Translations under genes and position numbers: made by a program | IMG/VR virus record: IMGVR_UViG_3300042259_000159 | Length of the DNA stretch: 64,000 nucleotides | Source: a virus | Strand: one strand, 5' to 3' | In this document: piece after piece, positions 5,843-46,401 of the stretch | Position numbering within the stretch: the first letter of the stretch is position 1 | How the letters are laid out: every line of letters starts with the position of its first letter | The notes under the pieces: generated by a model | What the model was told of the DNA's origin: nothing | The model's database searches: none | What the model saw: the letters and a program-made list of their open reading frames with translations, nothing else

Positions 5843-6376
5843 TTGGACATCTTCTTTATAACTTTTATTCTGTGGTTTGGAGGGGAGACTATTCCCGATG
5901 ATCTCCTGCACGATACAATCAGTGAGGTTGTCGATATTGTATGTTCTCAGCACCACATACCGGACAAGGAAAGTTTTAAAAGGCTTTTATATGAGACTGC
6001 TCAATATGAAAGTGAGGGTGGAATATATATAGAACAGCTTTCCGGAGGAGGAGCAAAAGGTATCTATCAGATAGAGCCTTTCACAGCGGAGTGCATAAAA
6101 AGCAATTGGATGAAATATAACGCTTCCAGCGGTGTTGAGACACTTTATAAAAATGCCTATGAAAGCGGCATGGGCTTGGAGTGGAATCTAGAGGTTAATC
6201 TGGGGTTTCAAACACTTATAGCCTCTTTGATTTACATTTCAAGAATGAATAAAAAAGACCATGCCCTAATAAAAACCTTGACAGGAAGGGCAAAAGTGTA
6301 TAAGAAGTATTTTAATACACCACTTGGAAAAGGAACAGTTCAAGGGTATATAACCAAAAACAAAAAGGAGAAATGA
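5843..6376 (+). CDS. hypothetical protein (TTG start)
   Basis: ORF track; no in-frame ATG near the 5' end. Confidence 0.4.
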   Translation: MDIFFITFILWFGGETIPDDLLHDTISEVVDIVCSQHHIPDKESFKRLLYETAQYESEGGIYIEQLSGGGAKGIYQIEPFTAECIKSNWMKYNASSGVETLYKNAYESGMGLEWNLEVNLGFQTLIASLIYISRMNKKDHALIKTLTGRAKVYKKYFNTPLGKGTVQGYITKNKKEK

Positions 6377-7478: not shown

Positions 7479-8855
7479 ATGGAGATGTTTTTTAGCAACA
7501 AAGAGGTTATCAGGGCTTGGGAAAATGTTGTGAAAAAACTTAACGCCAGCGGTTTTAAAGGTGCCATTGTTGGCGGTGCAGTTAGGGATGTTTTTATGGG
7601 AAAGACTCCCACAGATATAGACATTGCTACAAATGCAACACCAGAGGAGGTTTGTAGCATCTTTAAAGGTGCTAAACTTGTTGGTGAAAGCTTTGGTGTT
7701 TGCCGTTGGAATGGCTATGAAATTGCTACTTATCGAAACGATGTCCACAACGGTATTGGTGATACTTGTTGCACCGTGAGGTATACAGACGATCTCATTG
7801 AAGACCTTAGGCGTAGAGACTTCACAATGAATGCTTGTGCATATGAGAGGCATCCTGACGGGACAACGCATTTTGTTATGGCACAGGCAGGTTGTCTGGA
7901 TGACATCGAGAATAAGCGTCTTGATTTTGTAGGCAATGCTGAAGATAGAATCAGGGAAGATCCCAACCGCAGCTTCAGAGCATACCGCATGATTTGCAAA
8001 ACAGGCTTTCTGCCGTCATATGCTACAGCAAAGATAATATACAACAGAGGTATTGTTGAAAAATATCTTCCGTACATTGCACCTGAGAGGATAGGTAAAG
8101 AGCTTATAAAATCTATGGAGGAGCCTTTCTCTTGGAATTTTTTTAGGTGTCTTTACAGGTCTGGTATTATGTACACTCTCATCCCTGAGATGGCACAGGC
8201 TTGGAATATTTGGGGAGGAAAATACCATGCAGAGTACGTTGGTGAACACCTTATGGCTGTTGGTATGGGTATCTCTGCAAAATTCCCCTTGCTGAGGCTT
8301 GCAGGGTATCTGCATGATGTTGGTAAGGGGGTAACACACGAGGATGGCAGCTTCATCCGGCATGAAAAAGAGGGCGTGCATATTGCGCGGAGGTTTCTTA
8401 AAAGCCTTAAGTTCTCTACAAAAGATACAGAGAAGGTTTGCAATATAATTCGTTGCCATATGCGTAGATTTGGTGAGAATGAAACGCCTGCTACAAACAG
8501 GCGAACCCTTGCATATCTTGCAAAACACAATGTCTGCACATACGATTTCATCCGTTTGCGGATTGCGGATCACAACGGCAACTTTGCATGCAAGAAGATG
8601 AAATTCAGAGATATTAAGTCCCTTGTCAGATGTTGGGACACCTATCAGTTTGAAAAACAAGCTGCCCATAGTAGGAAAATGCTTGCCATTAATGGCAGGG
8701 ATATTATGAAAGAGTTTAATATCCCTCCGTCAAGACTTGTTGGGGAGATGATTGAATTTGCCCATAATATTGTTCTTGACAATGTTGATAAAAACGAATA
8801 TAGTATCCTTATCAATGAAATTAAAAAGCGGTTCGGAGGTAGCAATGGCGAATGA
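7479..8855 (+). CDS. tRNA nucleotidyltransferase (CCA-adding enzyme) with HD phosphohydrolase domain
   Basis: Pol-beta nucleotidyltransferase motif GGAVRD...DIDIAT, RRDFTMNA; HD motif HLMAVG...YLHDVGK. Confidence 0.75.
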   Translation: MEMFFSNKEVIRAWENVVKKLNASGFKGAIVGGAVRDVFMGKTPTDIDIATNATPEEVCSIFKGAKLVGESFGVCRWNGYEIATYRNDVHNGIGDTCCTVRYTDDLIEDLRRRDFTMNACAYERHPDGTTHFVMAQAGCLDDIENKRLDFVGNAEDRIREDPNRSFRAYRMICKTGFLPSYATAKIIYNRGIVEKYLPYIAPERIGKELIKSMEEPFSWNFFRCLYRSGIMYTLIPEMAQAWNIWGGKYHAEYVGEHLMAVGMGISAKFPLLRLAGYLHDVGKGVTHEDGSFIRHEKEGVHIARRFLKSLKFSTKDTEKVCNIIRCHMRRFGENETPATNRRTLAYLAKHNVCTYDFIRLRIADHNGNFACKKMKFRDIKSLVRCWDTYQFEKQAAHSRKMLAINGRDIMKEFNIPPSRLVGEMIEFAHNIVLDNVDKNEYSILINEIKKRFGGSNGE

Positions 8856-9033
8856 ACTTAATCTAAGGCTTAAGCTTAACGATGTGGAGAGGGAGGCAGC
8901 CACCTACAGGGCGGTATGCAAGATGTTGTTTAATAGAATGTCTTCAGCAGGAGACCTTGCATTCATCCACAAAAAGGATCTTCAAAAAGCACTTGACAAA
9001 TATAAGGAGGTATCACAAGATGCAAATATATAA
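8845..9033 (+). CDS. hypothetical protein
   Basis: ATG after GGAGGTAG. Confidence 0.45.
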   Translation: MANELNLRLKLNDVEREAATYRAVCKMLFNRMSSAGDLAFIHKKDLQKALDKYKEVSQDANI

Positions 9034-9439
9034 ACCGAGCCACTTCAGGATTGAAGAACTTGTTGACAAAAAAACTTTCAACGACAGAGGCGAGAAGGCT
9101 TGGCAACTTTTGGATGACAGGGCTTTGTTTGTTCTTCAGCTTCTCAGAAAGCGTTATGGACCCATTACAGTTAACAACTGGCTGTGGGGAGGGGACAGAC
9201 AGTGGAGCGGCCTTAGAACAAAAGAGTGCAGTATTGGTGCAACATATTCTCAGCACAGGTTCGGAAGAGCCTTTGACTGTCTTATTAAAAACGCCACTGC
9301 CGAAGAAGTTAGAAAAGATATGCTTGACTTCTGGCCAAAACAGATGTATAACTTCCCTATCACGATGGAAGACGATGTAAGCTGGTTCCATTTTGATACG
9401 CGGCAACAGGAAAATCCAGTAACCATTTTTAAACCGTAA
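9020..9439 (+). CDS. endolysin, peptidase M15 (L-Ala-D-Glu / D-Ala-D-Ala peptidase-like)
   Basis: SQHRFGRAFD (SxHxxGxAxD) and downstream WFHFD; ATG 9020 after AGGAGG. Confidence 0.7.
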   Translation: MQIYKPSHFRIEELVDKKTFNDRGEKAWQLLDDRALFVLQLLRKRYGPITVNNWLWGGDRQWSGLRTKECSIGATYSQHRFGRAFDCLIKNATAEEVRKDMLDFWPKQMYNFPITMEDDVSWFHFDTRQQENPVTIFKP

Positions 9440-9440
9440 A

Positions 9441-9468
9441 GGCGAATATCTGCCTAGCGTAACTCATA
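9441..9468 (+). repeat. 28-bp exact inverted copy of the tnpB 3' end / right-end sequence (second copy at 35548-35575)
   Basis: ggcgaatatctgcctagcgtaactcata here equals the reverse complement of 35548-35575. Confidence 0.8.
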
Positions 9469-9882
9469 GGATACATGGACTTCGCAAGTACAAGAATCAA
9501 ATTAAAAAGGAACTTTAACTATGGATATAGCGGTATCACACAAGATACGACTGCCGTGGTTCCCCTCCAAATCCTTCTGTGCTAAATCTTAACGCCTGTG
9601 GACAGAATGACCTCTGTATCTACCAACCAATGGAAGATATAAGTCAGCTGGTTGAAGCAGGAATTAAGTCCGGATTAATAGAAATTAATAGGAATTAAGG
9701 AGCAGATGAATATGTTGATTACGAACAATAAAGAACACCTTCGCTCATACCATGATATCATGCGTCTTTGGAAGATTGGTATCTTCACAGACAAGGCAAA
9801 GGATAAGTATTTGAATAAGCTTTATATTCGTGCTATGCACGACGGTAGGGTTCTTACAGAAAAAGAACATTGAGGGATAGCA

Positions 9883-10224
9883 GTGGACAATGTACCTTTT
9901 CTTGACCTTAATAGGGTCTCTGTAAATATGCTTATCAAAGCACCTGAATTACTTGTTAAAACAGATGCACAGATACATTCCGTAAAACACATTATAGAGG
10001 ATCTGAATCTAGATGCTGTTAAACTTGTAAAGATGGCCGTCCTTCTACGTACTCTTTTGAGGCAGAGGAGGTATTATAAAGAGATCACGGCCTTGCATAA
10101 TTCAATGTGTGTTGATAGTGAAAGGGTACTGAACTGGAAAAAGAAAAGCGATAGGCGGTTGATGGGGTATAAAGATCAATCCGAGCAACAGCTTGAATAC
10201 TATGAGAAGAAATACAATCTCTGA
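9883..10224 (+). CDS. hypothetical protein
   Basis: ORF track. Confidence 0.45.
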   Translation: MDNVPFLDLNRVSVNMLIKAPELLVKTDAQIHSVKHIIEDLNLDAVKLVKMAVLLRTLLRQRRYYKEITALHNSMCVDSERVLNWKKKSDRRLMGYKDQSEQQLEYYEKKYNL

Positions 10225-10239
10225 TACAGGAGGAGAAAG

Positions 10240-10431
10240 ATGAAGATGGGTTTTATGACTATTCTGGGTCTTATCTTTATTACGCTGAAACTTACAGGGC
10301 ATATCCTGTGGTCTTGGTGGTGGGTATTGGCACCTTTCTGGGGTCCAGCAGTAATTGCACTGATTTGCTTGATTTGTTTTGTAGCAAGCAACCTGCTGTT
10401 TAATACGAACAAAGGCAAAAATAGACTTTAA
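10240..10431 (+). CDS. small membrane protein, candidate holin
   Basis: 63 aa, two hydrophobic segments, AGGAGGAG upstream; lies ~800 bp after the endolysin. Confidence 0.4.
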   Translation: MKMGFMTILGLIFITLKLTGHILWSWWWVLAPFWGPAVIALICLICFVASNLLFNTNKGKNRL

Positions 10432-10449
10432 GATTAATTTAAAAACCGC

Positions 10450-10478
10450 TTGACAAAATCAGGCGGTTTTTCTATTGT
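10450..10478 (+). promoter_or_regulatory. sigma70-like promoter (TTGACA-N17-TATTGT) embedded in a hairpin
   Basis: aaccgcTTGACAaaatcaggcggttttt; near-identical element at 16911-16947. Confidence 0.5.
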
Positions 10479-12103: not shown

Positions 12104-12128
12104 CCGGAAATAATCCGGCCTTTTTTAC
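12104..12128 (+). terminator. rho-independent terminator
   Basis: GGCCGG-aaataa-TCCGGCC hairpin followed by T6. Confidence 0.6.
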
Positions 12129-12290
12129 GTCTAAATCCAGAGGACTTTTTCATTTTAAAAGGTCTAGAGAGGTTTTTCATTTTGGGAGGTCTAAAGAACA
12201 TTTTCAATTTACAACCAAAAGTAAAAAGTCTAGAGAACATTTTTAATTTGAGGTCTAAAGAGGATTTTCATTTTCAGATTTTTGTATGAA
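12121..12290 (+). repeat. tandem ~27-bp imperfect repeats (GGTCTA[A/G]AGA...TTTTCATTT); first ~90 bp identical to 16694-16782
   Basis: Direct reading; five units here, three in the second copy. Confidence 0.8.
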
Positions 12291-16673: not shown

Positions 16674-16700
16674 GGCGTTGACAAGGTTGACGCCTTTTTT
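16674..16700 (+). terminator. hairpin plus T6, probable terminator
   Basis: ggcgttgacaaggttgacgcc followed by tttttt. Confidence 0.45.
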
Positions 16701-16782
16701 ACGTCTAAATCCAGAGGACTTTTTCATTTTAAAAGGTCTAGAGAGGTTTTTCATTTTGGGAGGTCTAAAGAACATTTTCAAT
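16694..16782 (+). repeat. second copy of the ~90-bp tandem-repeat element
   Basis: Identical to 12121-12209. Confidence 0.8.
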
Positions 16783-33953: not shown

Positions 33954-34037
33954 TGGTAGGAGAAGAGAGATTCGAACTCTCAAGGAATAATCCGTCGAGG
34001 CTTAAACTCGATGTGTTTACCATTTCACCATTCTCCC
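33954..34037 (-). tRNA. tRNA-Leu (anticodon UAA), type II, CCA encoded
   Basis: Manual fold: acceptor GGGAGAA/TTCTCCT, anticodon loop TTTAAGC, long variable arm, T-loop TTCGAAT. Confidence 0.65.
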
Positions 34038-34045
34038 GTATTTTT

Positions 34046-34067
34046 TATCTACCATTCCGCCATTCCC
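34046..34067 (-). other. orphan tRNA 5' fragment (Leu-like acceptor + D-arm)
   Basis: GCGGGAATGGCGGAATGGTAGA with no matching 3' half. Confidence 0.4.
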
Positions 34068-34076
34068 GCATTTATT

Positions 34077-34153
34077 TGGTACCCACTGTGAGATTCGAAC
34101 CCACACTAATCAGTTTCTAAGACTGATGCCTCTGCCAAGTTGGGCTATACCAG
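34077..34153 (-). tRNA. tRNA-like gene (class I, anticodon UAG) with mismatched acceptor stem; probably chimeric or disrupted
   Basis: D-arm, anticodon arm TCAGT-CTTAGAA-ACTGA and T-arm fold, but 5' ACTGGTA does not pair with 3' AGTGGGT. Confidence 0.4.
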
Positions 34154-34184
34154 TATTATGCTTATTATTTTATTTTGAAAGGCC

Positions 34185-34235
34185 ATATGTATACACATAT
34201 ATATATATACATATATATATGTATAGAGCAACCAA
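34185..34235. repeat. TA-rich microsatellite
   Basis: atatgtatacacatatatatatatacatatatatatgtatag. Confidence 0.8.
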
Positions 34236-34412
34236 AATGGTTAAATAAAAAGGTGTTTTGTGGAGACACCAAACTCCTCCAGTTTTAGTGATCTGGAAAC
34301 AATAAGCGGCGCAGGTGCTCTTTAAAACACGTGCTACCAAGCGTATAAATTGTCTAGGGGATTTCACCAAACACATTATGTTATTGGAGGGATCTTTCCC
34401 TAGACTCAGTAA

Positions 34413-34485
34413 AGCTCCTGACAGGACTTGAACCCGCAACCGGCTGATTACAAATCAGCTGCTCTGCCAGTTGAGCTACAGGAGC
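34413..34485 (-). tRNA. tRNA-Thr (anticodon UGU), CCA not encoded
   Basis: Manual fold: acceptor GCTCCTG/CAGGAGC, D-arm GCTC..GAGC, anticodon loop TTTGTAA. Confidence 0.7.
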
Positions 34486-34489
34486 AGAA

Positions 34490-34561
34490 CAGAGGGAGAA
34501 GGATTCGAACCTTCGAATGACGGGACCAAAACCCGTTGCCTTACCGCTTGGCTACCCCTCT
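34490..34561 (-). tRNA. tRNA-Gln (anticodon UUG), CCA not encoded
   Basis: Manual fold: acceptor AGAGGGG/TCCCTCT, anticodon stem ACGGG/CCCGT, loop TTTTGGT. Confidence 0.65.
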
Positions 34562-34569
34562 AAATTTTT

Positions 34570-34646
34570 TGGCTCCGGCGGCAGGATTTGAACCTACATT
34601 CGCAATGGTTAACAGCCATTTGCCTTACCAATTCGGCGACACCGGA
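34570..34646 (-). tRNA. tRNA-Asn (anticodon GUU), CCA encoded
   Basis: Manual fold: acceptor TCCGGTG/CGCCGGA, anticodon stem AATGG/CCATT, loop CTGTTAA. Confidence 0.65.
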
Positions 34647-34691
34647 ATGAACTTTTTATTTGTTATCAGCATTGTTTTGCTTTATTTTAAA

Positions 34692-34770
34692 TGGTCTCGG
34701 TGATTAGATTTGAACTAATGATTATTCCTGCTCCCAAAGCAGGTGCCATACCAAGCTAGGCGACACCGAG
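34692..34770 (-). tRNA. tRNA-Pro (anticodon UGG), CCA encoded
   Basis: Manual fold: acceptor CTCGGTG/CACCGAG perfect, anticodon stem CCTGC/GCAGG, loop TTTGGGA. Confidence 0.6.
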
Positions 34771-35251
34771 ATCAGGTGTGGTACCAAACTCCACTATGGG
34801 CAGAGGTTATAAGAAGGTCCGTACATGATATAGACAGATATTCTTCCATAACAGCGGTACGGACGCTGTCTCATTTTTATATCTTTCAGTGTGCTATTAC
34901 GCCAAAGGGAAATTAAGCCTTACCAGTTACGGGGTGCCCTTTTACTATCCACAAAGAATTTCAAATCGCGTGCATTCTAAGTATCGGAAAATTCTACAAC
35001 CACTTAAAGTACACCTCGTTTAAGAGATAGCGACCTGTGCTTCGTCCCACTCTTTAAAGGATGGCTGCCTCAAAGCCCACCTCCTGAAAAATGCATGAAG
35101 GATTATCCCTCCTTCGCTAAATACAACCTATCAATTTTAAGGGTTCTTGTCAAGAACATTTTAAGGTTTTTGAAATTTTTGTTGAACGCTGATTTGCTAC
35201 GCGGGTACAGCGTTCGAAACCTCGATAGCATCCTTGCCGTTGGCAAAGCTG

Positions 35252-35393
35252 TCAGGAGCCGCAGGAGGAGAATTGAACTCCTCTGGCATCAACACGCAGT
35301 CACCACAACTACATCTACCGTTACGGGTATGGCTCCCCATCCTAGTCACCTGTTGATACCTTATAGGTTCAGCCCTACCAAGGGCACTGCGGC
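35252..35393 (-). ncRNA. tRNA-like structured RNA (~142 nt) with 7-bp acceptor-like stem and T-arm; possible intron-containing or disrupted tRNA
   Basis: GCCGCAG ... GAGGAGTTCAATTCTCCTC CTGCGGC; body too long for a standard tRNA. Confidence 0.3.
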
Positions 35394-35399
35394 TTAAGT

Positions 35400-35620
35400 G
35401 GGTTGGTTGGTGCAGATTGTGAACGTACCCCCGCCTATAGAGGCGGAAGCTTCCTGCTTCAGCGAGAACAGCACCAGTAACTCCGAAGAGTTGTGGCGAA
35501 TTACACTCTCTCCACAGGCGTAAATTCCCGTGCGACCCACGGTACTTTATGAGTTACGCTAGGCAGATATTCGCCCAGCTTCTTCTCTAATATTTATTGC
35601 AGCGTTCTTGTCACGGTTAT
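35400..35620 (-). ncRNA. putative TnpB guide (omega) RNA region overlapping the tnpB 3' end and right end
   Basis: Position relative to tnpB; subterminal hairpin CCGCC-tataga-GGCGG at 35431-35446; no direct RNA evidence. Confidence 0.35.
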
Positions 35621-36795
35621 GATGACTGCCACACTTAAGGCAATCCCATTCCCGCACAGACAAGTCTTTGGTATCCTTGTTCTGGTAGCCACAGACATGG
35701 CATAGCTGACTGCTTGGATACCATTTGTCTATCTTGATAAGTTGCTTACCCTGCCATGCAAGTTTGTATTTCAGCATACTTGTGAACATGCTCCAGCCGT
35801 TGTCGGATATGGATTTACCAAAGTTGAACTTGCCACCCTTCTTTCGCTTCGCCATGTCCTTTACGCTAATGTCCTCTATGCCAATCACATCATAGCGGTC
35901 TGCAAGATAACGAGCTTTCTTATGCAGGAAGTCGCGGCGTTGATTAGCAATTTTCTCATGGAGTACAGCCAAACGTAGTCTTTGTTTATTCCTATTACGG
36001 CTCCCTTTTTGTCTCTTGGAGAGTTTTCTTTGTGCCTTGATCAATCTCTTTTCGGCTTCCCGTAAGAAATTTGGATAATCGGCGTTGTCCTCATCGGAAG
36101 CAACATACATCCCGTGCATAGCAAAATCCAATCCAAGAAAATTCTTCGGTATGATGGGAAGTATTTGGTTTTCATACTCCACCAAAATACTAATATAGTA
36201 TTTTCCTGACGGTGTTTTACTTATGGTTACAGTCTTTATGGTGCTATTCTCCATCAATGGACGATGCAGACACAGCTTTACCCAACCTATTTTCGGCAGC
36301 TTGACTTTGTTTCCCTCGATTCTTACAGAGCCATGTTGGTTGTTCGTAGAATATGAAGCATGACCCGCTTTCTTCGACTTGAAGCGTGGCTTGCAAAAAT
36401 GCTTCCTATTGCTCCAAAAGTTGTTATACGCCTTGTTCAGGTTTATTTGGGCATTGGCGAGAGCAAGGCTGTCAACCTCTTTCAGCCAAGGAAACTCTTT
36501 CTTGTACTGTGCAGGTGTGTTGTTCAGCCTCTCTCCTGTTTCCTTATAGTGATCAAGACGATCTCCAAGCATCTTGTTATAGATGAATCTGGCACTGCCG
36601 AAAGTCTTGGCAAACATAATCTTCTGTTCAATTGTCGGGTAGAGTCTATATCGGTATGCCTTATTCACTATAATCACCTGCCTTGATTTTCTATGTATTT
36701 ACGAATTGTCTCAAACGGAGCAATTATCTGGCTCAACTACTTACGTAAATTCGCTAGACACACCTTCATCCCCCACCTTAGAGGTGGAGGGCTTC
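35425..36795 (-). mobile_element. IS200/IS605-family element, TnpB-only (IS1341-like)
   Basis: tnpB ORF flanked by similar subterminal hairpins at 36773-36787 and 35431-35446; no tnpA seen. Confidence 0.7.
35559..36677 (-). CDS. tnpB: TnpB (IS200/IS605 OrfB, RuvC-like RNA-guided nuclease)
   Basis: N-terminal YRYRLYPT; C-terminal zinc finger CHVCG...CLKCG; 372 aa. Confidence 0.85.
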   Translation of the reverse strand: MIIVNKAYRYRLYPTIEQKIMFAKTFGSARFIYNKMLGDRLDHYKETGERLNNTPAQYKKEFPWLKEVDSLALANAQINLNKAYNNFWSNRKHFCKPRFKSKKAGHASYSTNNQHGSVRIEGNKVKLPKIGWVKLCLHRPLMENSTIKTVTISKTPSGKYYISILVEYENQILPIIPKNFLGLDFAMHGMYVASDEDNADYPNFLREAEKRLIKAQRKLSKRQKGSRNRNKQRLRLAVLHEKIANQRRDFLHKKARYLADRYDVIGIEDISVKDMAKRKKGGKFNFGKSISDNGWSMFTSMLKYKLAWQGKQLIKIDKWYPSSQLCHVCGYQNKDTKDLSVREWDCLKCGSHHNRDKNAAINIREEAGRISA

Positions 36796-36799
36796 TGGC

Positions 36800-36843
36800 G
36801 GGTTAGGTTAAATCCCTTGTGTCTACTAATTCCACCAATCGGG
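36800..36843 (-). other. partial tRNA-Leu-like 5' fragment next to the IS left end
   Basis: GCCCGATTGGTGGAATTAGTAGACAC duplicates the 5' end of tRNA-Leu at 36940 but lacks a foldable remainder. Confidence 0.4.
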
Positions 36844-36853
36844 CTAAAATCTT

Positions 36854-36940
36854 TGGTGCCCAATGCAGGACTCGAACCTGCACGCCATTTCAGGCAGGAG
36901 GGCTTAAACCTCGTGTGTCTACCAATTCCACCAATCGGGC
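36854..36940 (-). tRNA. tRNA-Leu (anticodon UAA), type II, CCA encoded
   Basis: Manual fold: acceptor GCCCGAT/ATTGGGC, anticodon loop TTTAAGC, long variable arm. Confidence 0.6.
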
Positions 36941-36949
36941 TAAAATCTT

Positions 36950-37033
36950 TGGTGCCTCAGACAGGATTCGAACCTGCACGGATCTCTCCACTTGGTCCTA
37001 AGCCAAGCGTGTCTGCCATTCCACCACTGAGGC
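36950..37033 (-). tRNA. tRNA-Leu (anticodon UAG), type II, CCA encoded
   Basis: Manual fold: acceptor GCCTCAG/CTGAGGC perfect, anticodon stem CTTGG/CCAAG, loop CTTAGGA. Confidence 0.65.
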
Positions 37034-37477
37034 TGAAATTTTAATTAAAGTTTGACATACTCCCCACGGATAAATCCGGGGGATTCTGGATTCAAACAGC
37101 AACGGCGGGTGCAAGCACCCTTCTGTCTGTCATTGAGGCAGTCGCCTTAGAACCAGCCGCTGCACCGAACTCGCTACCGCTGGGCGCTCTGCAAGAACAC
37201 ACTCCCAGATATGTATGCCAATAGCAATTTTTGTCATGTTTCATGTTTACCTCCGCTCGCAGGTGAGCTATTCGTTATATGTCGTAAAATTCATGGCTCG
37301 TGTATTTGCACGGGATTACCCCATGCAAAACGTGCAGGAAGGCAAGCACAGCCTGACGCACGGCCTCCCTTAATGCCTTTTTTGCTACGGCAAAATTCGC
37401 CATCATGTGCTTAAAATAGATCATCATATAACCAGTCAATCAACCGGATTTGCTATGCTCTCCGGTTATTTCGGTCG

Positions 37478-40329: not shown

Positions 40330-40470
40330 TGTCAATACCTTATTCTTATCTAAACATAAGATATATATATTATATATATATTCTTTATATAATATAAATA
40401 TATATACTTTATATATAGTATATTTATATAATATATATATGTATATAATATATATACTCCTACTCACTAC
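40330..40470. repeat. TA-rich low-complexity repeat upstream of dam
   Basis: atatatattatatatatattctttatataatataaatatatatac... Confidence 0.8.
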
Positions 40471-41922: not shown

Positions 41923-42199
41923 GGTGCCGCAGGTTCGGGAAAGTCATACATAATGAATATGATACCTTTGAGGTATGTCGATTGCCCCAACTTTAGGGGG
42001 ATTGTCTTCCGAAGGGAAACGACACAGCTTACAGGTGAAGGGGGGATGTGGGATACAGCAACGGAGATATACTCTGAGCTGCCTAAAAATATCAGGCCCA
42101 AAATATTGAAACATAACCTGAGAATGATTTTTCCGAATGGGGCAAAAATTAAGTTTTCACACATGGAAAATGATAATGATTTCAGGAAACATCAAGGGT
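41923..42199 (+). CDS. terL: terminase large subunit, exon 2 (Walker A)
   Basis: GAAGSGKSY ... FSHMENDNDFRKHQG. Confidence 0.65.
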
Positions 42200-42453
42200 T
42201 AATTAGTAGCCCCTTGTGTTGGTGACAGCGCAAGCAAACTAACCTAATTCGGTGGAAGCCCAAACATGTAGGATGTGGGTGATACCGAGCAAGCCACGGC
42301 GTGTGTAACGACTAGTTCTTAGGAACGTAGGCCCAAGCGGGTCGAAACGGTTAGCATCTTATTAAGATGAAGATATAGTCTACTCTGCATGGAAACATGC
42401 AGCGGACACTTTATGTGTCGGGCAGATGTTAGCGCCATCTGTTGAATATTATG
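42200..42453 (+). other. group I intron 2 in terL
   Basis: R gtgtgtaacgactagttcttagg at 42301; S gaagatatagtctactctgcatggaaacatgcag at 42369. Confidence 0.6.
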
Positions 42454-42562
42454 TACAATATACCCTGATATGCTTTGATGAGGCAACACATTTCACTTTC
42501 CAACAAGTTGAATACTTAATGTCACGTATGAGAAGTAAAAGTAAGTATGCTTCTCGTATGGT
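42454..42562 (+). CDS. terL: terminase large subunit, exon 3 (Walker B)
   Basis: QYTLICFDEATHFTFQQVEYLMSRMRSKSKYASRM. Confidence 0.6.
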
Positions 42563-42846
42563 TCTGTCGTGGATTACGCGACATGTATGGCGAAAGCTGT
42601 ACTGGCAACTGTGTGAACTCAGGGAAACCTTAGCTGCTGCAATTGGGCAGAGGAAGAAGGCAATCCTGAGCGAAGCCTTCCCACCGGGAAGGAACGTGCA
42701 ACGACCATCGAAAGCGTAACACCTGTTACAGTGAGTAGAGTACACCACACATGTGTGGTGGAAGCGCACAGCCCCTAACATGTAACGATGAGGGTGAAGA
42801 TATGGTCTGAACCTACAGAAATGTAGAAAAAGGTAAACAAATACAG
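42563..42846 (+). other. group I intron 3 in terL
   Basis: Shared 48-bp motif caatcctgagcgaagccttcccaccgggaaggaacgtgcaacgaccatc; S-like gaagatatggtctgaacc at 42796. Confidence 0.55.
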
Positions 42847-43162
42847 GATAATCGGTAACCCAGATCCTGATAGTTGGCTTTTGCCTATGGTAGAGTGGTA
42901 CTTAGATGAACAAGGATACCCCGACCAGTCTAAAGATGGGGTTGTAAGATGGTTCATTAGAAAGAATGGTGAGTTTATCTGGAGGGATACAGAAGAAGAA
43001 ATCTATAGAGATTTTGGAACAGGCCCGTCTATACGCCCTGTATCCTTTACATTCATCTCTGCAAATATCTATGATAACCCTATTATGATAGAGACCAATC
43101 CAGACTATCTTGCAATGCTTGAAGGCCTCAACGAGGTTGATAAGGCAAGATTACTACGCGGT
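42847..43162 (+). CDS. terL: terminase large subunit, exon 4
   Basis: IIGNPDPDSWLLPMVEWYLDEQGYPD...; the NP motif is only in frame once intron 3 is removed. Confidence 0.6.
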
Positions 43163-43444
43163 TAACAGTGGCCGCATATAGTAGTGATATTATATGAAAA
43201 ATTGTGTGAATTCAGGGGACACCTAAACAGGCAACGCTTTGTGCTGTAGGCAATCCTGAGCGAAGCCTTCCCACCGGGAAGGAACGTGCAACGACCATCC
43301 TGAGTAGGAGTAGGGCCAAGCGGTTCCGAAGCGCACAACATCTCATTGAGATGATGATATGGTCTGATCTATATGGAAACATATAGCTGACACGGTGTAT
43401 ATTACGTGTCGGGCACGTCTTAGCGAGACGTGCTGAACAAAATG
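43163..43444 (+). other. group I intron 4 in terL
   Basis: Same 48-bp motif at 43250; S-like gatgatatggtctgatctatatggaaacatatag at 43371; 3' end ...ctgaacaaaatg. Confidence 0.55.
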
Positions 43445-44167
43445 AACTGGTATGCTAGACCACAGGATAGTGGATACTTTAAAAGAGATTGGCTGCAACG
43501 TTGTGTTGAGGCACCTACTGATACAAAGTGGGTACGTGCTTGGGATAAAGCAGCTACAGAGCCGAGTGACACAAACCCCTCTCCTGACTATACAGCTTGT
43601 ATAAAGATGGGGAAAGATAGAGCAGGAAACTACTACATTGCTGGCGATTTTGTGGAAGAAAACTATGATGAAGACAGCAAGACATATGGCAGGTTCAGGA
43701 AAAGAGCAGGTGCAAGAGATAATATCATCTTGAAACAGGCACTTGCTGATGGCCATGATTGTGAGGTTGTTCTTCCTCAAGACCCCGCTGCTGCGGGTAA
43801 GACGGAATACATTGAATCAGCAAAGAAATTAATAGAGCAAGGTATCCGTTGCAGAAAGGATGTGGTTGCATCTAACAAATCTAAGCTAATAAAGTTTTCA
43901 CCGTTTTCTGCATCATGCGAGAATGGGCTTGTTTACATCTTGGATGCAACATTTACCCAAAAAACATTGAATGCATTTTATACAGAGCTTGAATCTTTCA
44001 ACGGAGAAGCAAGCACAAGAACACGAAAGGATGATTGGGTTGACTGCACAGCAATGGCATTCAACTACCTATCTAAAAAAAGTGTACTTCCCAATTTTAC
44101 ACTAGATGAGTGGGGAGGTACATCGGTAAAAACACCCCTCTCAATTGTGAGGGCCAACTTTCATTAA
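43445..44167 (+). CDS. terL: terminase large subunit, exon 5 (nuclease domain)
   Basis: WVRAWDKAAT...DYTACIKMGKDRAGNYYIAGDFV; the five exons total 1500 nt (500 codons). Confidence 0.65.
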   Translation, partial: NWYARPQDSGYFKRDWLQRCVEAPTDTKWVRAWDKAATEPSDTNPSPDYTACIKMGKDRAGNYYIAGDFVEENYDEDSKTYGRFRKRAGARDNIILKQALADGHDCEVVLPQDPAAAGKTEYIESAKKLIEQGIRCRKDVVASNKSKLIKFSPFSASCENGLVYILDATFTQKTLNAFYTELESFNGEASTRTRKDDWVDCTAMAFNYLSKKSVLPNFTLDEWGGTSVKTPLSIVRANFH

Positions 44168-44178
44168 GGAGGGCACTG

Positions 44179-44885
44179 GTGGTAAAAGAGGGCAGCAAGT
44201 CTGCTACAAAAACAACCACTTCTAAGAAATTCAACCTATCTGAAAAAGGGTATATAGGACTTAATCAGGTAAATGGCCGCATTTATGAGGAAAGTCGTGA
44301 TGCTTTAAGGTTCCCTAATGCGACAAAGACCTTTAAAAAGATGTCCTATGACCCTGTAATATCCGCTGCAAATTCCACAATAGATCTTATGATAGGTCGT
44401 GTGCAGTGGTTCTTCGATGTTCCTGATACAGCCAGTGATAAGGCAAAAGAAGCAGCAGAATTTTTAAATTACTGTATGAACAGCATGGATATGGGAACAT
44501 GGGAAGATTTCATTACTGAGTGTGGTAGCTATAGACGTTACGGCTTTCACATAGCGGAAAAAGTCTACAACAAGGTTAAAGAAGGGAAGTGGAAGGGAAA
44601 GTATAAGTGGAAAAAACTACCAACAAGAGCACAAGACACCATTGAAGAGTGGGTCTTTAGTAAGGATAACAGGGAGCTTTTAGGCTTAAAACAGTCAACA
44701 AGAAATGTGACACACCCACTGGCATTAAAGAGCCTTACAGGCTATATAGAAATACCAAGGTCAAAATTCATACATTTTGCCTACGATGGGTATAGAGATA
44801 ACCCAGAGGGAAGAAGCCCGTTAGTTGGTGCCTACATCCCTTGGACATATAAAACACTCATAGAGGAATATGAGGCTGTCGGCGT
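44179..44885 (+). CDS. portal protein, exon 1
   Basis: GTG start 6 nt after AAGGAGG; portal-sized product after splicing. Confidence 0.55.
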
Positions 44886-45826
44886 TAATTATAGCGCCTT
44901 TATGTATTGATACATAAAGCAAACTCCCTTAATTCAGGGGAAGCCCTAACGTTGAGACGAGGGTAATCCTGAGCGAAGCCTTCCCAACGGGAAGGAACGT
45001 GCAACGACTAATAAGTCAAATAAACAACACATTAGTGTATGGAGAGTATTTTATGAAAACTTCAAAAGAAATTAGGAACCTTGTCATTGCTATGCTGTTT
45101 GGAGACGGCACATTGAATGCTAAAGGTTATTTGAGCATGCGTCACTGCATAGCGCAAAAAGACTATATAGATTGGAAACGAAAACTTCTAGTAAGTGGTA
45201 TATCTATGACTGACTGTTATTATGTTAGTAATAACGGGTATGGTGCATATGAAGTTAGAAGTAGAGTTTACAAATTTATGAAGCAATATCGTAAGGTAAT
45301 TTATGGTAGTGGTAGAAAAAACATTACAGACCGTAGAATCCTGAATAAGCTCACGCCGCTTGGTTTATCCATATGGTATATGGATGATGGCGGGTTATCT
45401 CAGAAGAAAAACAAGGATGGTGAAGTAGTAGCAAACGAGCTGATACTTAACACATATCTTAGTAGAGAAGACAACCAGAAGATTATTGATTACTTCAATG
45501 AAGTTTGGGGTATAAGATTTACTCAGGTAAAGAATAGAGGTCTTTATCGTCTCCGTTGCGGTACAGCGGAGGCTAGGAAATTTATAGAAATCGTAAAGCC
45601 ATATGTCTCCCAAGTACCGAGTATGGCACACAAAATGAAGTTAAAAGTAAAATAGTCTGACTATCGAACACACGTAATTTTTACGGAAGTTAGTAGAGTA
45701 GAACCAAGTGGTTCGAAACGGGGAGGTTCTTAGAAATAAGAACATGATATAGTCTGGTCTGCATGGAGACATGCAGGAGTTCATAAGAGAACCGGAGAAG
45801 ATTAACGACCTTTTCTGAACACAACG
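44886..45826 (+). other. group I intron in portal gene carrying a LAGLIDADG homing endonuclease ORF
   Basis: 48-bp shared motif at 44960; S element gatatagtctggtctgcatggagacatgcagg at 45746; 3' end ...ctgaacacaacg. Confidence 0.6.
44999..45655 (+). CDS. LAGLIDADG homing endonuclease (intron-encoded)
   Basis: LVIAMLFGDGTL and LSIWYMDDGG motifs; probable start at ATG 45053. Confidence 0.7.
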   Translation: MQRLISQINNTLVYGEYFMKTSKEIRNLVIAMLFGDGTLNAKGYLSMRHCIAQKDYIDWKRKLLVSGISMTDCYYVSNNGYGAYEVRSRVYKFMKQYRKVIYGSGRKNITDRRILNKLTPLGLSIWYMDDGGLSQKKNKDGEVVANELILNTYLSREDNQKIIDYFNEVWGIRFTQVKNRGLYRLRCGTAEARKFIEIVKPYVSQVPSMAHKMKLKVK

Positions 45827-46070
45827 AGCTAAAGACCTTGGGGGTATTCCTCTTATAGGTGTGGATGTTGATTACCTTGCTAAAGCACAGGAGAACCCTG
45901 CATCAGCAGAAGCCGCTGTTGTAGAGGCACTGAAGCGTGATGCAGCAAATATGCATTCAGGTGATCAATCCTACATGCTCCTTCCTCTTGCTTACACACA
46001 GGATGGGGGGAAACCACTCTTTGATTTTAAACTTGTTGGAGTGGACGGTGGTTTGCAAATAAGCCACGGT
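45827..46070 (+). CDS. portal protein, exon 2
   Basis: In-frame continuation (V)AKDLGGIPLIGVDVDYLAKAQ...ISHG. Confidence 0.5.
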
Positions 46071-46401
46071 AGATGGAAACATCTATAAAAATAAACCTAT
46101 CTAATTGCTGGGAAGTCTTGTTAGGCTTAATGTACAATACAGAGTGGTGACACTCTGCGATACTGTAAAAATCATTAAGATAGAGATAATCAGCAGCCAA
46201 GCTTAAGCCTCCAGACAGATAAAGGAGGAGGCTTTTGAAGGTTCAACGACTAGTTCTTAGGAACGTAGGCCCAAGCGGGTCCAAACGGTAGGGTTCCTCC
46301 AGTGCGGCTGAGGAATAAGATATAGTCTAGTCTGTATGGAGACATACAGGTGCAGGTAAAGCTGCCGGAAAGGTCTAGCGAGCCTTTTTGAATACTAAAC
46401 G
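46071..46401 (+). other. group I intron 2 in portal gene (no ORF)
   Basis: R ggttcaacgactagttcttaggaacg at 46241; S gaataagatatagtctagtctgtatggagacatacagg at 46313. Confidence 0.6.

Follow-up and report, generated by a model that had tools for sequence, protein, structure and literature searches.

The region from 9441 to 9705 (plus strand) of the 64-kb stretch of viral DNA analysed here, the window, is very probably the non-functional remnant of a second, IS607-type element. This element, IS-2, comprised a serine recombinase gene (tnpA), a tnpB gene (tnpB2) and a RAGATH-18-derived guide RNA. The first-pass annotation had interpreted 9441-9620 as a second copy of sequence from the tnpB element located at 35.4-36.8 kb (IS-1), for instance a solo right end. 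A transposon and guide-RNA remnant devoid of TnpB is indeed located just downstream of the putative endolysin gene, and it extends to 9705. Its derivation from the tnpB1 element did not hold: apart from a 28-nt patch, the region belongs to a different element.

The remnant starts with this 28-nt patch (9441-9468, plus strand), an exact match to the tnpB1 3' end and the adjoining start of the IS-1 right end. The tnpA relic follows at 9468-9518 (plus strand), the 3' end of an IS607-type serine recombinase gene with 16 codons, RIHGLRKYKNQIKKEL, and a stop. Twelve of the 16 residues match RIYGLRKYAKQIEKEL, also ending in a stop, which is encoded upstream of a TnpB2 homologue with 67% identity in L139. 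The 44-aa ORF in L139 matches positions 151-186 of 187 in the IS607 family transposase model NF033518 with E = 9e-9, a score below the cut-off. Upstream of the relic, there is just the IS-1-derived 28-mer and the putative endolysin stop; the left end with the recombinase sites is missing.

tnpB2 is present as two pieces. The first 31 nt (9521-9551, plus strand; MDIAVSHKIRL...) are identical to the sibling contig L100. A 37-nt deletion junction (9552-9588, plus strand) replaces 1,053 nt of tnpB2 (L100 147-1199). Within the junction, CTAAATCTT (9582-9590) alone is recognisable as tnpB2. Directly after it, a 24-nt stretch with the 5' hairpin of the guide RNA, ACCCTCGGCTTGAGGG, is missing, and the guide-RNA scaffold of about 187 nt is therefore incomplete in the window. 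The last 35 codons, NACGQNDLCIYQPMEDISQLVEAGIKSGLIEINRN, occupy 9589-9698 (plus strand; stop at 9696-9698) and are out of frame with the 5' stub. The window thus retains 11 codons of the N-terminus and 35 of the C-terminus, which are in different frames, but no intact ORF for a RuvC-type TnpB, a protein of about 330-433 aa in IS607-family elements. For the 30 nt at 9552-9581, L100 offers no matching template of at least 11 nt; the longest match has 8 nt. In the window itself, the sole match of 11 nt is at 5876 on the opposite strand and was taken as chance. The 30 nt could be a scrambled residue or filler. Read in frame, they encode ...PWFPSKSFC, a faint echo of the TnpB zinc-finger motif FPSSKTCSICG.

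The 3' part of the remnant carries the truncated guide RNA (omega/reRNA-2). The RAGATH-18-type core hairpin at 9595-9663 (plus strand) consists of CCUGUGGA, a long stem and GUUGAAGCAGGAA. The 3' part of the scaffold covers 9664-9705 (plus strand) and includes a terminal hairpin (9669-9693). The right end of IS-2, ...AAGGAGCAG, was placed at 9705 (plus strand) by comparison of the window with L135-L137: the element itself is identical, and the flanks diverge sharply after ...GGAGCAG. The consensus right end of the TnpB2 family is ...AGCAG. The would-be guide, ATGAATATGTTGATTACGAA (9706-9725, plus strand), is the start of ORF55 (9706-9873). Searches of IMG/VR with the copy-specific strings CCTGTGGACAGAATGAC and CTGCCGTGGTTCCCCTCC recovered the source contig only, and among GenBank phages the region 8800-10300 had no nucleotide relatives.

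The intact form of tnpB2 is known from sibling phages. A look-up of ORF55 identified contig L100, which codes for the same protein and, ahead of its gene, for a TnpB of 397 aa. Window positions 9410-9551 are identical to L100 5-146 (142/142), and 9589-9700 to L100 1200-1311 (112/112). In L100, tnpB2 (116-1309) is located between the putative endolysin gene and ORF55. TnpB2 has the domains HTH_OrfB_IS605, OrfB_IS605 and Cas12f1-like_TNB and reached 295 bits with NF040570 (cut-off 100). It shares 34% identical amino acids with TnpB1. Four assemblies besides L100 encode a 99%-identical TnpB2 at the same locus; the agreement of five independent assemblies makes chimerism unlikely. The deleted form is also reproducible, with 265/265 identical nucleotides in five loci from four other contigs and four samples.

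The protein family models alone do not tell the two elements apart. The IS200_TnpB model NF038281 and the IS607_TnpB model NF038280 gave 353 vs 249 bits for TnpB2 and 421 vs 170 bits for TnpB1, and both proteins missed both curated cut-offs (425 and 350 bits, respectively). The IS607-type label of IS-2 was chosen afterwards from the tnpA relic, the guide-RNA core and the TAM-like motif, and not from a TnpB protein match. Beyond the phage's own cluster of 99%-identical TnpB2, the nearest protein is the 67%-identical one in L139; relatives in IMG/VR do not exceed 55% identity. Genes for TnpB are frequent in phages, and homologues were present in 426 GenBank phage records. A copy of IS-2 with an intact left end and tnpA was not found, and no database protein shared words with the frame of the tnpA relic in a search for an intact tnpA of this lineage.

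The structure of the guide RNA is in line with the assignment. The region 9595-9661 folds as a long, fully paired hairpin, the architecture of RAGATH-18, although the stem sequence is unrelated. Covariation across six members of the TnpB2 family backs the 5' hairpin, P1 and P2, and the terminal hairpin at 9669-9693 shows compensatory changes in comparison to L139. The Rfam model RF03064 (RAGATH-18) matched over its full length in L100, in a sequence identical to the window (24.8 bits), in L139 (30 bits) and in L143 (27.3 bits), all below the gathering score of 44.9 bits. A scan of window positions 9300-9900 against Rfam returned chance-level matches only and did not report the RAGATH-18 copy at E ≤ 10. 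RAGATH-18-derived RNAs guide IS607 TnpBs of about 390 aa, with a 187-nt scaffold and AGGAG or GAGGG as TAM (PMC11061315). In ISFba1, cleavage is abolished by disruption of PK1, a scaffold pseudoknot between stem-loops of the segment farthest from the guide (PMC11061315). By analogy to ISFba1, the truncated guide RNA would be inactive. Given the absent nuclease gene and the incomplete scaffold, the IS-2 stub is most likely inert. It has neither a promoter-like nor a terminator-like site within 9441-9705. The stub is located between a promoter-like site (8776-8804) and the only terminator-like site (10441-10471) and is therefore probably co-transcribed within an endolysin-ORF55 unit.

The locus between endolysin and ORF55 exists in three states in related phages: empty, with an intact tnpB2, and with a decayed tnpB2 as in the window. 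Empty alleles (L013 and L144-L147) have two small ORFs of 56 and 70 aa in place of the element. In these alleles, AGGAG or GGGAG immediately precedes the 20 nt by which the element is followed in occupied alleles: L147 has AGGAG and then ATAAGTATGC..., and L013 and L144-L146 have GGGAG and then ATGAATATGTTGATTACGAA. By sequence, a motif like the IS607-type TAM (published as AGGAG/GAGGG) is present at the unoccupied sites. The guide of the window and L100 matches L013 and L144-L146 in 20/20 positions. Empty and armed alleles were present together in two metagenomes, 3300036466 (L144 and L136) and 3300043122 (L145 and L137).

These states may suggest TnpB homing or competition between related phages. 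The disarmed allele would be kept because the insertion separates TAM from target and so confers immunity at no nuclease cost, and the IS-1-derived 28-mer would be a break-repair scar at a contested site. We consider this scenario unlikely. Retention of the remnant for a function, either immunity to cleavage by the TnpB2 of co-infecting siblings through the separation of TAM and target or use of the guide stub in trans by that TnpB2, is quite unlikely. The empty, armed and disarmed alleles in related phages, two of them in the same metagenomes, the TAM-like motifs beside a 20/20 guide match and the invariance of the remnant across samples are in agreement with it. TnpB-driven retention and homing were reportedly established for IS200/IS605 elements by Meers and colleagues in 2023. 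Against a function stands the deletion of the 5' hairpin of the guide RNA, a region that would be essential by analogy with ISFba1. Immunity requires no particular sequence and is hard to distinguish from neutral persistence, and the activity of TnpB2 and the TAM are putative at this locus. The complete conservation of the remnant across samples is most simply a sign of recency, although selection is also compatible. We favour an inert remnant of IS-2.

The 28-nt repeat that had drawn attention to the region is genuine. As the first-pass annotation stated, positions 9441-9468 (plus strand) are the exact reverse complement of 35548-35575 (minus strand); the repeat search in the 64-kb window recovered them as pair I4. 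On the IS-1 side, the 28-mer spans the last tnpB1 codons (...EAGRISA; tnpB1 ORF 35559-36677, minus strand), the TAG stop and 11 nt beyond. An exact 28-mer is expected about 1e-7 times in 64 kb by arithmetic; the inverted identity is real and cannot be chance. Its identical position in at least nine independent assemblies excludes an assembly artefact. In comparison to the majority IS-1 allele, which has an A before GGCGAA, the match grows to 29 nt, starting from 9440.

The exact 28-mer is confined to the Phascolarctobacterium-type sublineage of IS-1, in copies with 94-96% TnpB identity. It is altered in relatives at about 87% identity, and the segment is absent at 57%. This restriction to one sublineage indicates copying from IS-1 and not the reverse. 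The 28-mer starts inside the IS-1 hairpin GCUGGGCG/UGCCUAGC; no IS-1 structure is preserved, which points to a fragment captured at a recombination or deletion junction. In every occupied allele it lies between the putative endolysin stop codon and the tnpA relic, upstream of tnpB2 and not in the tnpB2 right end. We infer its capture at the junction that resulted from the loss of the left end, of most of tnpA and of about 385 nt of phage DNA. It may derive from an IS-1 copy that was adjacent or nested, or represent templated filler. A reading of the 28-mer as native tnpA coding sequence (SVTH vs SIIH in L139) was rejected: the sequence has homologues throughout the IS-1 family, in which it encodes the C-terminus of TnpB1 and forms a hairpin. 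Another inverted pair at a similar distance, I2 (10976/37052), is out of register with an inverted segment and was taken as coincidence.

The first-pass annotation had also proposed that the two copies pair for an inversion. A working recombination pair that flips the intervening 26 kb is highly improbable. The perfect inverted identity over 28 nt would permit it; 28 nt is near the minimum length for homologous recombination. Inversion would create the junctions endolysin-28mer-AAGTACCGTGG and tnpB1-28mer-GGATACATGG. All IMG/VR occurrences of the 24-nt core (6/6) have parental and not recombinant flanks, and the flanks are the same in all contigs carrying the remnant. The inversion would also part tnpB1 from its own guide RNA, and a non-systematic look beside either 28-mer copy identified no invertase gene. 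We propose instead that the inverted 28-mers share common descent from IS-1 and are not a working pair.

The resident element IS-1 (35419-36807, minus strand) is an IS200/IS605-family element without tnpA, with boundaries defined by five copies in different IMG/VR contexts. Its tnpB1 codes for 372 aa and matched TnpB family models. The left end, CCTAACCCGCCAGAAG..., starts at 36807, next to the target-adjacent motif TTTAA (36808-36812, minus strand); TTTAA precedes 38 of 42 copies of the family. The right end is ...GGGGTACGTTCAC at 35419, and the flank past it, AATCTGCACCAACCAACCCA (35399-35418, minus strand), is the guide of guide RNA-1. IS-1 relatives carry a Y1 (IS200-like) transposase. An exact look-up of the TnpB1 protein for more junctions returned no record. 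The closest relatives of TnpB1 (94-96% identity) are in Phascolarctobacterium genomes, which suggests the host: these are probably gut phages of Phascolarctobacterium.

A RAGATH-18-like core is present in IS-1 (35451-35518, minus strand) as a full-length match of 27 bits (E = 0.01), below the threshold. It also occurs in the IS200/IS605-type IS-1 family (loci L031-L089), with Y1 transposase and TTTAA TAM. A publication of 2024 describes RAGATH-18 as co-occurring exclusively with IS607 TnpBs (PMC11061315).

The insertion context of IS-1 differs between the window (35100-37040, minus strand) and the sibling L004 (2380-4380). In the window, TTTAA is inside the 5' half of a third tRNA-Leu-like copy (36808-36844), and the right end abuts non-tRNA phage DNA. 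In L004, IS-1 splits a tRNA-Leu(taa) cleanly, and the right-flank sequence of the window is found about 370 nt onward. The difference implies that DNA beside the right end was deleted or rearranged in the window lineage.

Alignment of 9420-9720 with the IS-1 right end showed that the 28-mer alone was recently shared, essentially the outcome that the first-pass annotation had named as counter-evidence. The remaining similarities are short core motifs of the guide RNA that two distant TnpB families have conserved. This applies to one of the two further right-end-like strings noted earlier, acgcctgtggacaga, which is located at 9592-9606 and not at about 9578. Its region matches IS-1 in 18 of 21 nt around ACGCCTGTGGA, a score reached by one of 300 shuffles. 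The "acgcctgtgga" string within the earlier description is the conserved guide-RNA core common to both TnpB families. A second shared core string, GAAGCAGGAA at 9654-9663, had been missed. The pattern CCTGTGGA-N-GAAGCAGG has two sites in the window, at 9595-9661 and in IS-1, and none in 100 shuffles. The other string, ctaccaaccaatgg, is at 9620-9633, beyond the interval noted, and not at about 9603. Its counterpart, found by an 'accaaccaa' match, is 35399-35418, outside IS-1 in flanking phage DNA. In L004, this sequence is phage DNA about 370 nt off the element, so that the resemblance is coincidental. atctaccaaccaa was considered as a target of the IS-1 guide and rejected: it has a 1-nt gap in the seed region, lacks TTTAA and corresponds to the loop at the tip of the RAGATH-18 hairpin.

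An origin from the resident IS-1, as a solo right end or an orphan guide RNA, that is, a diverged second copy of the IS-1 right end, is hardly tenable: the 28/28 identity and the strings ACGCCTGTGGA and GAAGCAGGAA in the same order speak for it, but in sibling phages the 28-mer sits upstream of a different tnpB, and the region has no continuous similarity to the right end with GGGGTACGTTCAC, the best match beyond the 28-mer being the 18 of 21 nt. IS-1 relatives down to 45% TnpB identity all keep GGAGAGAGTGTAAG..., the terminal hairpin and GTTCAC, and the flagged region lacks all three. Its stem sequences, spacing (124 vs 27 nt) and 3' end (...AGCAG) fit the TnpB2 family. The closest TTTAA motif, at 9428-9432, is separated from the 28-mer by 8 nt and is not followed by a left end.

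Several other features of the window were observed. A CCA-adding enzyme with PolyA_pol, HD and tRNA_NucTran2_2 domains is encoded at 7479-8855 (plus strand), just upstream of the gene for a weakly M15-like peptidase. Eight tRNA genes, among them duplicated pairs of Leu(taa)/Leu(tag), are located at 33954-37033 (minus strand). A 91-nt exact direct repeat (12118-12208 and 16692-16782, 4.6 kb apart) contains sub-repeats of 25-27 nt (GAGGTCTAAAGAAC...TTTTCA), candidates for reiterated binding or regulatory sites. AT-rich nested palindromes and short tandem units at 40337-40456 (arms of 40-45 nt, 71-85% complementary) have an appearance resembling a replication origin. Five group I intron matches (RF00028, 51-96 bits) within about 4 kb at 42190-46349 (plus strand), together with the internal repeat families D2, D4 and D9, suggest a heavily intron-invaded gene or gene cluster.

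The formation of the remnant may have started with the insertion of IS-2 into an ancestral phage immediately 3' of AGGAG/GGGAG, just ahead of ORF55. A leftward rearrangement would then have deleted the left end, most of tnpA and the phage DNA with the two small ORFs. A 28-29-nt fragment of a Phascolarctobacterium-type IS-1, the 3' end of tnpB1, would have stayed at the junction with the endolysin stop. Sibling phages have this form, with tnpB2 intact. In the window lineage, tnpB2 would subsequently have lost 1,053 nt, including the 5' hairpin of the guide RNA. The outcome is a nuclease-less stub with a truncated guide-RNA scaffold, probably a passive passenger in the endolysin-ORF55 transcription unit. 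The order of events is deduced from the alleles; as no IS-2 copy found has an intact left end and tnpA, insertion followed by deletion and the arrival route of the 28-mer are putative. The remnant alone is a dead transposon stub, and the 28-nt repeat thus requires no new mechanism. It is an ordinary transposon relic in an informative setting. Of most interest is the three-state locus, a compact natural system in which homing of IS607-type TnpB between phage genomes, and the decay of such elements, could be tested.

The sibling allele resembles the IS607 TnpB/RAGATH-18 elements described for ISFba1 (Cell Res 2024, PMC11061315). Its TnpB has 397 aa in comparison to about 390 aa, a RAGATH-18-type core is located between 5' and 3' scaffold segments, and a serine-recombinase tnpA relic lies upstream of tnpB2. 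Further similarities are AGGAG/GGGAG directly 5' of the target in empty alleles and a guide drawn from the DNA just past the right end. Unlike these elements, the window has no nuclease gene and no 5' scaffold hairpin, and the left end and most of tnpA are absent in every IS-2 copy found. The tnpB2 ORF runs through the guide-RNA region, whereas the published reRNA is separate from the coding sequence (PMC11061315). IS-2 is also phage-borne, and its Rfam scores are below the gathering threshold.

IS-1 is similar to the IS200/IS605 omega-RNA elements of the ISDra2 type, with TTTAA at the left end, a fixed right end ...GTTCAC, a guide RNA overlapping the tnpB 3' end and a Y1 transposase in relatives. 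The flagged region differs from IS-1: it has just 28 nt and the guide-RNA core motifs in common and lacks the terminal hairpin and right end of IS-1. The allelic states also recall homing endonuclease genes, for which the model of Goddard and Burt is said to describe a cycle of invasion, fixation and degeneration. As in that cycle, a single locus has empty (putatively cleavable), intact-nuclease and decayed-nuclease alleles. It differs in that the nuclease is RNA-guided and transposon-derived, and homing between the phages would be deduced from the distribution of alleles.
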